The notes beneath the pieces are model-generated. The model made no database searches. It was not told the origin of the DNA and saw nothing but the letters and a program-made list of their open reading frames with translations. From the UHGV virus genome UHGV-1362809: DNA of 64,000 nt; one strand, 5' to 3'. The position numbers were made by a program, and so were the translations under genes. The stretch comes from a virus. Shown here in pieces: positions 42,462-43,831 of the stretch. The stretch's first letter is position 1; each line of letters opens with the position of its first letter.

Positions 42462-42758
42462 CTAAAAGAAACTTACCCGTATTTTAATGGAATCGTCTAA
42501 CTTAGATACGTTATCTTTAATCTGTTGCAGTAGCTGTTCACTAAATACTGACTCCTGACCATAATTATCTATGATGGAGGCTCTCCATTTAGGAAGAAAA
42601 TCTAATACTTCCTGCTTATTTAACTTTAAATCACCGTCCAACCAAAAAACAAAGCCGGATCTATTTAAGTTACCAACACCACCAAAAACAGTATTGCTAA
42701 GATCTTGCACTTTTTGCCCATTAGCGTTCACTTCATAAAAATATGTATTGCATCCCAT
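42462..42758 (-). CDS. hypothetical protein
   Basis: ORF track. Confidence 0.35.
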   Translation of the reverse strand: MGCNTYFYEVNANGQKVQDLSNTVFGGVGNLNRSGFVFWLDGDLKLNKQEVLDFLPKWRASIIDNYGQESVFSEQLLQQIKDNVSKLDDSIKIRVSFF

Positions 42759-43831
42759 TAGGAAATCCTCGAAAATAAGCCATATTTACACATATTAGCA
42801 AAATTAGGTTTGTCTAGATCGAACATTTTTATCAAGTCAGAAGTGGATAAAATAGCCTGATAAGTTTGTACAACCTTGTTATTTTTTAGTATACAAACAT
42901 TTACAGTTTTACGTCCAATACAACAGCTTAAACGAGTTTCTACTACGTCACCATGGTCGCACTGTCTTGCGTAGTCTACTGCCAACTTACGAGCATATAA
43001 ATTAAGCGTTAGGTCAGCCTTTGTACCGTCCTTAGTCCAAGGACTACCACCGCCGATATGACCATTACCGCCATAAAAATCTACTGCTAGTTTTCTACCT
43101 GTTGTACCACAGTCCCCAACGGAAGAATGAATTTTATAACATCCTGTACCATTGATAGTAAGACTAAAGTCATTAGTATAACCGTCTATAAAGTGAGCAT
43201 TGATATAGCTTTTTATACAAGAGAATACTTCATCCGCAACATCGGAAATATCATTTGAAAGTAAAGGAATCGCTACAATAACATGGTCTAATAAGCTACC
43301 ACCATTTTCCTCTTTTATCGTAATCTGAGTTTTAATATCCAACCCTGCGTCTAAATTACCCGATTTAACCTGCTGATATAAAGTAGTATTTATATCTTTA
43401 GCCATTGTATAGTCTACAGGCATGTAGTCAATATCAGGATTATTAACAGCATAACCAAAGAAAATACCTTGGTCACCCCAACCTTCGCTATCCACACCTA
43501 CACCAATTTCAGGACTTTGCCTACTAATATAGATGTTTACTTGAAGTTTAGCAGGGTTTATACACTGCTCATCCCACTTTTTAGCATACTCCTCAGTGTA
43601 CCCAATATCTTTCACAGCCTTAACAACAAAGGACTTAATCTGCTCATTGGATGGCATATAGGTAGAGGTCACTTCTCCCGCCAAATTAACCACATTATCC
43701 TTTACCTGACATTCCACAGCGTATCTTACATTAGCATCTTCTTTTAAATACTGATCCAACAGATATTCACTAATATAATCTGCTGTTTTATCAGGATGAC
43801 CTAAACTAACATATTCACTTGTAATGTACAT
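42758..43831 (-). CDS. metK: S-adenosylmethionine synthetase (MetK homolog)
   Basis: N-terminus SEYVSLGHPDKTADYISE matches the MetK SEGHPDKIADQIS block. GWGDQGIFFGYA matches GAGDQGLMFGYA. Confidence 0.7.
   Translation of the reverse strand: MYITSEYVSLGHPDKTADYISEYLLDQYLKEDANVRYAVECQVKDNVVNLAGEVTSTYMPSNEQIKSFVVKAVKDIGYTEEYAKKWDEQCINPAKLQVNIYISRQSPEIGVGVDSEGWGDQGIFFGYAVNNPDIDYMPVDYTMAKDINTTLYQQVKSGNLDAGLDIKTQITIKEENGGSLLDHVIVAIPLLSNDISDVADEVFSCIKSYINAHFIDGYTNDFSLTINGTGCYKIHSSVGDCGTTGRKLAVDFYGGNGHIGGGSPWTKDGTKADLTLNLYARKLAVDYARQCDHGDVVETRLSCCIGRKTVNVCILKNNKVVQTYQAILSTSDLIKMFDLDKPNFANMCKYGLFSRIS

Follow-up and report, generated by a model that had tools for sequence, protein, structure and literature searches.

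A divergent phage-type SAM synthetase gene in the replication module of an uncultured large phage, and the linkage of its relatives to DNA methyltransferase genes

SAM synthetases (methionine adenosyltransferases [MATs]; MetK) encoded by phages are already known, and in viromes from the gut and from anaerobic digesters they rank with the most frequent auxiliary metabolic genes. The ortholog K00789 has been reported from 58.9% of the genomes of "Ca. Heliusvirales" gut phages, with C5-methyltransferases in 67% (PMC11283538), and in anaerobic digesters SAM synthetase was reported among the most abundant phage genes with a role "to be determined" (PMC13644194). The idea that such an enzyme provides methyl donors dates to 2014, when a MetK-domain protein in the annotation of prophage Phi1207.3 was proposed as the methyl-donor source for the phage methylase (PMC4260502). 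In prophage 12/111phiA, MetK carries a 135-aa truncation relative to the E. coli enzyme, and deletion of a prophage metK in Streptococcus agalactiae affects aggregation and biofilm (PMC8223999). We found 132 phage records with a SAM synthetase annotation, mostly Streptococcus prophages; matches to Helicobacter "prophage" MetK were discounted, as they most likely represent the host metK flanking the prophage insertion site (PMC5311958). The annotated examples (Streptococcus Javan, Phi1207.3, and 12/111phiA prophages, "Ca. Heliusvirales," and Microcystis phage Mel-JY01) often lie near ParB-methylase or C5-methylase genes, and a methyl-donor role has been proposed for them. No enzymatic characterization of a phage MetK, including members of the clade described here, was found in our literature searches.

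The SAM lyase (SAMase) of phage T3 is unrelated to MetK as a protein but is likewise a phage gene product that manipulates the host SAM pool, in a restriction and BREX context. Its effect is the opposite one: it destroys SAM and inhibits MetK, and in this way T3 defeats both type I restriction-modification (R-M) and BREX (bioRxiv 10.1101/2023.02.27.530186).

Here, we describe a metK-like gene in a 64,000-nucleotide stretch of virus genome UHGV-1362809 (the window). It is a divergent addition to the known and common phage-type MetK auxiliary genes, and for this window alone the finding is routine annotation. Its product is at most 44% identical to the annotated phage SAM synthetases, and the Streptococcus prophage MetKs align only to its residues 1 to 306. 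The annotated genes are located in temperate siphovirus-type genomes, whereas the phage that carries the window gene is large and myovirus-like, with PaBG and Lu11 as distant relatives, and has the gene in its replication module.

Every gene called in the window lies on the minus strand, and the window as a whole is a module of replication and nucleotide-metabolism genes from an uncultured large phage. It encodes a family A DNA polymerase (58096-61008), a portal protein (25937-27940), a metallophosphoesterase, RNase H, dUTPase, thymidine kinase, and the anaerobic ribonucleotide reductase NrdD (37715-40293), which adjoins an NrdG-like radical-SAM activase (37098..37721; PF13353, 1.4e-09; PF04055, 1.1e-08). 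The NrdD/NrdG pair suggests an anaerobic host; a search for tRNAs in the window found none. The portal and polymerase are ~30% identical (best portal matches, ~37-39%) to those of the jumbo phages PaBG and Lu11, with Erwinia phage Alexandra-type phages and Rhizobium phage N46 in the same range. In a megablast search, positions 40000-48000 matched none of 50,697 phage records; hence, no close relative with annotation is available as a guide. The source is taken to be an uncultured large phage because of these low portal and polymerase identities combined with the absence of a match at the DNA level.

The metK-like gene occupies positions 42758..43831 (minus strand), starts with ATG, ends with TAA, and encodes 357 aa. 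A strong Shine-Dalgarno sequence, AGGAG, lies 6 nt 5' of the start codon (43838..43842, minus strand). Upstream, separated by a 41-nt gap, is a DnaB-like replicative helicase gene (43873..45240, minus strand; PF03796, 1.2e-19), the product of which is 96% identical to its counterpart in the syntenic contig L168. On the other side, a 98-aa open reading frame (42462..42758, minus strand) begins with an ATG that overlaps the metK stop codon (TAATG), and this overlap suggests translational coupling of the two genes, as judged from sequence. Searches of Pfam and PHROGs gave no match for the 98-aa product, which has a 99-aa equivalent in L168 (73% amino acid identity). The order in L168 is that of the window: helicase, MetK, the 99-aa frame, a 127-aa frame, metallophosphoesterase, and a 126-aa frame. 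Promoter-like sites around metK were no more frequent than in shuffled sequence, and a search for terminator-like sites there gave none; therefore, no transcription unit could be defined.

The assignment to the MAT family, which an earlier note on this DNA had made from the letters alone, is backed by domain architecture, catalytic residues, predicted fold, and purifying selection. All three Pfam MAT domains score above their gathering thresholds, namely PF00438 (S-AdoMet_synt_N; 79.1 bits, GA 33.1, 3.8e-22), PF02772 (S-AdoMet_synt_M; 49.5 bits, GA 29, 5.8e-13), and PF02773 (S-AdoMet_synt_C; 48.5 bits, GA 25, 1.1e-12), and jointly they span residues 2 to 355. In a sequence search of the PDB, 45 distinct MAT sequences were matched, and the best solved relatives were those of Campylobacter jejuni (4le5; 3e-44) and E. 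coli (1fug; 1e-35). By these comparisons, the match to SAM synthetases is far beyond chance. The NCBIfam metK equivalog model TIGR01034 was matched over profile positions 2 to 359 of 377, despite a low score of 174.9 bits against a cutoff of 309.4 bits. This places the protein in a divergent subfamily rather than among the curated metK equivalogs. The phage profile phrog_1569 was matched over the full length of the protein (1.7e-76), with residues 1 to 355 aligned to profile positions 1 to 339 of 346. PHROGs labels this family "unknown function."

With E. coli MetK (1FUG/1RG9; TIGR01034), the window protein shares the three-domain MAT fold, the catalytic, metal-binding, and substrate-binding residues, and the gating-loop motif, although the two are only 36% identical (357 versus 384 aa). 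Compared with the E. coli enzyme, it lacks ~20 residues at the C terminus and 5 residues after the gating loop, has an insert of ~9 residues in the N domain, and reads GWGDQG, GGGSPWTKD, and CCIG in place of GAGDQG, GGGAFSGKD, and YAIG. The "unusual" MetK of C. jejuni (4LE5) aligns without gaps across the region of the N-domain insert and is structurally close (TM, 0.84), but its alignment covers only residues 3 to 285, it keeps GAGDQG, and it is a cellular housekeeping enzyme.

To examine the active site, the window protein was aligned to E. coli MetK and 16 positions were mapped, the functional roles of which we take to be those given in the E. coli MetK literature; the E. coli reference sequence was checked segment by segment against the HMMER output. 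In the N-terminal part, H14, D16, K17, E42, and E55 of E. coli correspond to H12, D14, K15, E40, and E53, the first three of which lie in the block SLGHPDKTADYISE (residues 9 to 22; 43766..43807, minus strand). In the middle part, Q98, D118, K165, and F230 correspond to Q105, D120, K167, and Y232, with D120 located in the GWGDQG block (residues 117 to 122; 43466..43483, minus strand); both blocks had been singled out in the earlier note and are present as described. Toward the C terminus, D238, R244, and K245 correspond to D240, R246, and K247, and K265, K269, D271, and I302 to K267, K271, D273, and I305. The six charged residues among these lie in the block GDCGTTGRK...GGGSPWTKDGTKAD (residues 240 to 273; 43013..43114, minus strand). 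The only substitution among the 16 positions is the conservative change of F230 to Y232, and the gating-loop motif QSPxI..GVD is also found.

The same note had described the C-terminal half as divergent and had doubted the activity of the protein on that account, proposing a check of the C-terminal flexible-loop residues by alignment or structure prediction. The divergence stands insofar as the C-terminal domain score is lower, some of its loops are deleted, and the protein ends ~20 residues early, but the C-terminal catalytic residues are all present. The proposed check revealed no loss of a catalytic residue at the mapped positions, and the doubt about activity is not borne out in silico because every active-site position checked is retained, D240, R246, K247, K267, K271, D273, and I305 included. 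Across 198 aligned homologues, which share only 40-60% identity with each other, 11 of the mapped catalytic positions and I305 are invariant (H12, D14, and the C-terminal block included). K15 is found in 192 homologues and E40 and E53 are each found in 197, and every homologue has Y or F at position 232.

An AlphaFold2 monomer model built on 60 homologues had a mean pLDDT of 91.6 and a pTM of 0.91, with weaker stretches at residues 101 to 120, which include the gating loop, and at residues 241 to 270 (interface/P-loop), where pLDDT falls to 64-77. In MATs, which are homo-oligomers, the active sites lie at the dimer interface. When the model was compared with the PDB using Foldseek, the top 50 matches were all MATs (TM 0.77-0.86, E ~1e-28), and the best were solved MATs at TM 0.81-0.86. 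The dN/dS of the gene was 0.06 against its 98% relative (L169) and 0.11 against a 79% relative (L168). Taken together, sequence and model suggest an apparently intact methionine adenosyltransferase that is probably catalytically competent.

The relatives of the window protein form a large, divergent clade located mostly on phage contigs (phrog_1569, ~330-365 aa), and the clade falls short of the NCBIfam metK equivalog cutoff. A large protein database contained 6,120 matches below 1e-10, and among the 120 matches listed nearly all are 330-365 aa long. The top matches are 98%, ~78-79%, and 60% identical, followed by a plateau near 50%; overall, clade members are 47-79% identical to the window protein, compared with at most 36% for E. 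coli MetK. Residues W118, P264-W265, and C303 (A116, F262-S263, and Y300 in E. coli, respectively) are a signature of the clade; they are present in the window protein in the motifs GWGDQG, GGGSPWTKD, and CCIG and are 97-100% conserved in the 198 members. W118, for which the canonical residue is Ala, is found in 195 of them.

Within the window, potential consumers of SAM are numerous. The description of this genome as loaded with methyltransferases holds for the window, where five methyltransferase loci accompany the radical-SAM enzyme NrdG, a further SAM user 5 kb downstream of metK. Two are N6/N4 DNA methyltransferases with a DPPY motif (31766..32464, PF01555, 2.7e-27; and 33935..34576, PF01555, 1.2e-10; both minus strand), and a third is an MT-A70 family adenine methyltransferase (34573..35142, minus strand; PF05063, 8.3e-26). 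A 158-aa frame with NPPY (35621..36097, minus strand) gave no Pfam match and matches the DNA-methyltransferase family phrog_799 (2.8e-26) in the middle only (profile positions 215 to 323 of 458); it may be a DNA-methyltransferase fragment. The fifth is an N6/N4 DNA methyltransferase split into two frames (46564..47360, minus strand), of which the 3' frame (46564-47028) matches PF01555 (2e-27) at profile positions 97 to 221, and the frame encoding the N-terminal part (47070-47360) has DPPY and matches phrog_67 and phrog_6025. The two lie in different reading frames, and from sequence the gene looks frameshifted. This split gene, 2.7 kb upstream of metK and beyond the helicase, is the nearest SAM consumer; the remaining methyltransferases lie 6.7-11 kb downstream. 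Thus, in the window itself, no methyltransferase lies within ~1 kb of metK.

In related loci, the arrangement is often tighter. From 38 dereplicated IMG/VR loci, we compared the 144 ORFs lying up to two genes from MetK on either side with 144 control ORFs at least 5 kb from MetK in the same loci. The neighbors included 22 PF01555 methyltransferases, 8 ORFs with ParB_N, 5 AdoMet decarboxylases, and 1 Mom; PF01555 was absent from the family list of the controls, so at most 1 of those 144 could have matched. A distance profile, obtained by tblastn with the window's own methyltransferases, gave 20 methyltransferase matches in the first kb from MetK in 80 viral loci and 0 to 4 per kb beyond. In 80 independent bacterial/metagenome-assembled genome (MAG) loci, 31 matches fell in the first kb, 4 in the next, and 1 further out. 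Individual contigs illustrate the pairing: methyltransferases flank MetK in L005, L006, and L007, with ParB_N-methyltransferase fusions directly beside it in L005, and the one that adjoins MetK in L007 shares 52-68% identity with the split methyltransferase of the window. Intact homologues of the split gene are immediate neighbors of metK in related phage contigs. The pairing occurs in roughly 40% of related loci; in the other ~60%, no methyltransferase homologue was detectable within the flanks searched, and among jumbo-phage contexts, L002 to L004 have none near MetK. In the 60% relative, L001, MetK sits among FolE, QueC, and a radical-SAM gene (7-deazaguanine). L001 was rejected as a syntenic comparison, and its 7-deazaguanine neighbors are uninformative for the window because MetK is the only gene that the two have in common. 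The contextual support for a functional MetK-methyltransferase pair is strong, and this preferential adjacency lends independent weight to the suggestion, made in the earlier note, that the enzyme supplies SAM to the methyltransferases. Neither the tight linkage nor the signature residues of the clade were found stated in the literature.

On balance, the most probable role of the window gene is that of an active SAM synthetase that raises SAM for phage DNA methylation, a reading in which we place considerable, though not full, confidence. The enzyme would convert L-Met and ATP to SAM, PPi, and Pi in an Mg2+- and K+-dependent reaction, and metK would be expressed together with the phage replication and nucleotide-metabolism genes. 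Its main effect would be that infected cells make more SAM, such that four or five phage DNA methyltransferases could fully methylate newly replicated phage DNA and thereby protect it from host restriction; SAM would also be supplied to NrdG. In favor of this reading are the homology, the intact active site, the MAT fold, and the purifying selection, as well as the shared orientation and close spacing with replication genes and the statistical linkage of the clade to N6/N4 methyltransferases. The methyl groups needed for a hundred copies of a large genome, methylated at several short motifs, would by rough estimate at least equal the standing SAM pool of the cell, which fits the MetK-methyltransferase pairing. 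If the enzyme is active and SAM supply limits methylation during infection, metK would be part of an anti-restriction toolkit, mirroring the SAM-destroying strategy of phage T3, and the MetK-methyltransferase linkage would offer a concrete, testable reason for the prevalence of the gene. Some observations point the other way: the clade substitutions W118, P264-W265, and C303-C304 are near conserved motifs, the TIGR01034 cutoff is missed, and the window metK is not adjacent to a methyltransferase.

Instead of DNA methylation, the product could serve SAM homeostasis in general during infection, offsetting host shut-off and feeding NrdG here, QueE-type enzymes elsewhere, or decarboxylated-SAM/polyamine chemistry. 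A general supply is conceivable because some relatives adjoin AdoMet decarboxylase genes (5 of the 144 neighboring ORFs) or 7-deazaguanine genes (L001), L002 to L004 have no methyltransferase nearby, and the pair is loosened in the window; NrdG, 5 kb downstream of metK, would be a local user. However, NrdG activation takes little SAM, because the glycyl radical that it generates serves many turnovers, the window ORFs scanned include neither an AdoMet decarboxylase nor a 7-deazaguanine gene, and methyltransferases are by far the most enriched neighbors, with no other neighbors falling off sharply with distance as they do. We therefore consider homeostasis as the main function rather unlikely. 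A role in counter-defense, as raised in the earlier note, appears very unlikely. Here, the phage MetK would replace SAM depleted by host immunity or a competing element or would bypass inhibition of the host MetK, by analogy with phages that carry cofactor-replenishing pathways and in keeping with the central place of SAM in several defense and counter-defense interactions. We found no evidence for it: a search of the literature for SAM-depleting defenses returned only work on SAMase, BREX, and CmoA and no immune system of that kind, a search for MATs in phage anti-defense gave no papers, and no defense or anti-defense genes were identified beside metK. For SAM-dependent defenses, the proposal runs against the logic of T3, because it is a drop in SAM, and not a rise, that defeats type I R-M and BREX.

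Loss or change of function was weighed against the same evidence. An altered chemistry, such as production of a SAM analogue for DNA hypermodification, or a nonenzymatic role in modulating the host MetK could be read from the score below the equivalog cutoff, from the invariant W118, P264, W265, and C303 in or next to conserved active-site motifs, and from the uninformative PHROGs label. The residues that bind Met, ATP/PPPi, Mg2+, and K+ are nevertheless all retained or conservatively replaced (F230 to Y), the neighbors are ordinary SAM-dependent methyltransferases, and no hypermodification genes were found in the window, which makes such a function highly improbable. That metK is a decaying passenger recently taken from a host might be thought of, as some neighbors look broken (e.g., the split methyltransferase at 46564-47360). 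Yet the dN/dS of 0.06-0.11, the intact frame with its Shine-Dalgarno sequence, the gene order kept in L168, and an identity of at most 36% to E. coli MetK against 47-79% to a deep phage clade all speak against it, and a pseudogene or passenger gene is effectively refuted by the selection and the clade conservation.

Beyond SAM supply for phage DNA methylation in this one phage, the phage-type clade could be a functionally specialized MAT subfamily that, with a methyltransferase, forms a mobile two-gene anti-restriction module across very different phages; this idea is speculative, and we think it unlikely. The invariant W118, P264-W265, and C303-C304 could alter kinetics or regulation, for example through relief from (i) product inhibition or (ii) host or SAMase-type control of MetK, and the module would consist of a SAM generator and a beta-class DNA methyltransferase. 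As for the spread of the clade, 361 stretches on viral contigs in IMG/VR encode a relative, and a scan of GTDB (one genome per species) with two peptide patterns gave 146 matching loci, mostly in gut and rumen MAGs, from Clostridia, Bacteroidales, Victivallales, Elusimicrobia, Alphaproteobacteria, and Kiritimatiellae. So wide a distribution over different phyla may point to a mobile or prophage origin of the GTDB copies rather than to a housekeeping gene.

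Comparison of the window with the syntenic contig L168 indicated that the putative SAM synthetase (MetK) and the gene that follows it are clearly more diverged than their surroundings. Across region 42462-43831, amino acid identity was 79% for MetK and 73% for the following 98-aa ORF, whereas the flanking genes retained higher identities (helicase, 96%; 128-aa ORF, 87%; metallophosphoesterase, 85%; 124-aa ORF, 92%). This higher divergence could be attributed either to faster evolution of the two genes or to a recombination patch.

The genes accompanying MetK in related loci were also surveyed. 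S-adenosylmethionine decarboxylase (PF02675) accounted for 5 of the 144 ORFs neighboring phage MetK (viral loci L008-L087, alignment A2), as an immediate neighbor, which suggests that SAM synthesis is paired with decarboxylated-SAM (polyamine or aminopropyl) chemistry in some phages. None of the scanned ORFs in the window matched S-adenosylmethionine decarboxylase. In locus L001 (positions 3329-15598), a MetK 60% identical to that of the window lies amid GTP cyclohydrolase I, QueC, thioredoxin, and a radical-SAM gene, and these neighbors constitute a 7-deazaguanine-type DNA modification gene set. Phage-type MetK was additionally found on the 1.2-Mb chromosome of Candidatus Deianiraea vastatrix, a bacterium of the Rickettsiales (L093), as well as in several Alphaproteobacteria and Elusimicrobia metagenome-assembled genomes, including small-genome loci.

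Several genes of the window are broken into separate ORFs, two of them at inteins. The anaerobic ribonucleotide reductase NrdD (37715-40293, minus strand) is encoded in two ORFs that are in different frames and separated by a gap of 56 nt: the upstream piece (39472-40293, minus strand) comprises the ATP-cone, the NrdD N-terminus, and the N-terminal part of the intein, and the second piece (37715-39415, minus strand) carries the C-terminal part of the intein together with the remainder of NrdD. The intein may be naturally split here ("fractured gene") or may be a mini-intein disrupted by a frameshift; alternatively, the break could stem from an error in the assembly. An SF2/ResIII helicase (49982-53399, minus strand) is likewise interrupted around an intein, with the helicase N part and intein N-part in one ORF (52377-53399, minus strand) and the intein C-part and ResIII in another (49982-51379, minus strand). 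Between them lies a separate 347-aa ORF (51373-52416, minus strand) with a weak REase_MTES_1575-like match. An arrangement of a split intein plus a free-standing homing endonuclease is known from metagenomic phage genes, and the broken helicase with its intervening ORF resembles it. An N6/N4 DNA methyltransferase (46564-47360, minus strand) is divided between a 96-aa ORF, which contains the DPPY motif, and a 154-aa ORF in a different frame; joined, the two correspond to the intact 251-aa homolog that flanks MetK in locus L007. The split could have arisen through a frameshift or a sequencing error, or the gene could be a pseudogene.

Inteins and homing endonucleases are unusually abundant across the window. 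A 1,176-aa ORF (28221-31751, minus strand) adjoining the portal gene, probably encoding the large terminase, contains an entire intein that includes a LAGLIDADG endonuclease, and a 583-aa ORF (62221-63972, minus strand) contains two LAGLIDADG domains. Four DUF7487 paralogs are scattered on the minus strand (14058-15416, 48718-49962, 56053-57243, and 57230-58000). A 921-aa FtsK/SpoIIIE-family ATPase (780-3545, minus strand) and a UvdE UV-endonuclease homolog (20872-21909, minus strand) are encoded in a portion of the window where Pfam matches were otherwise few.
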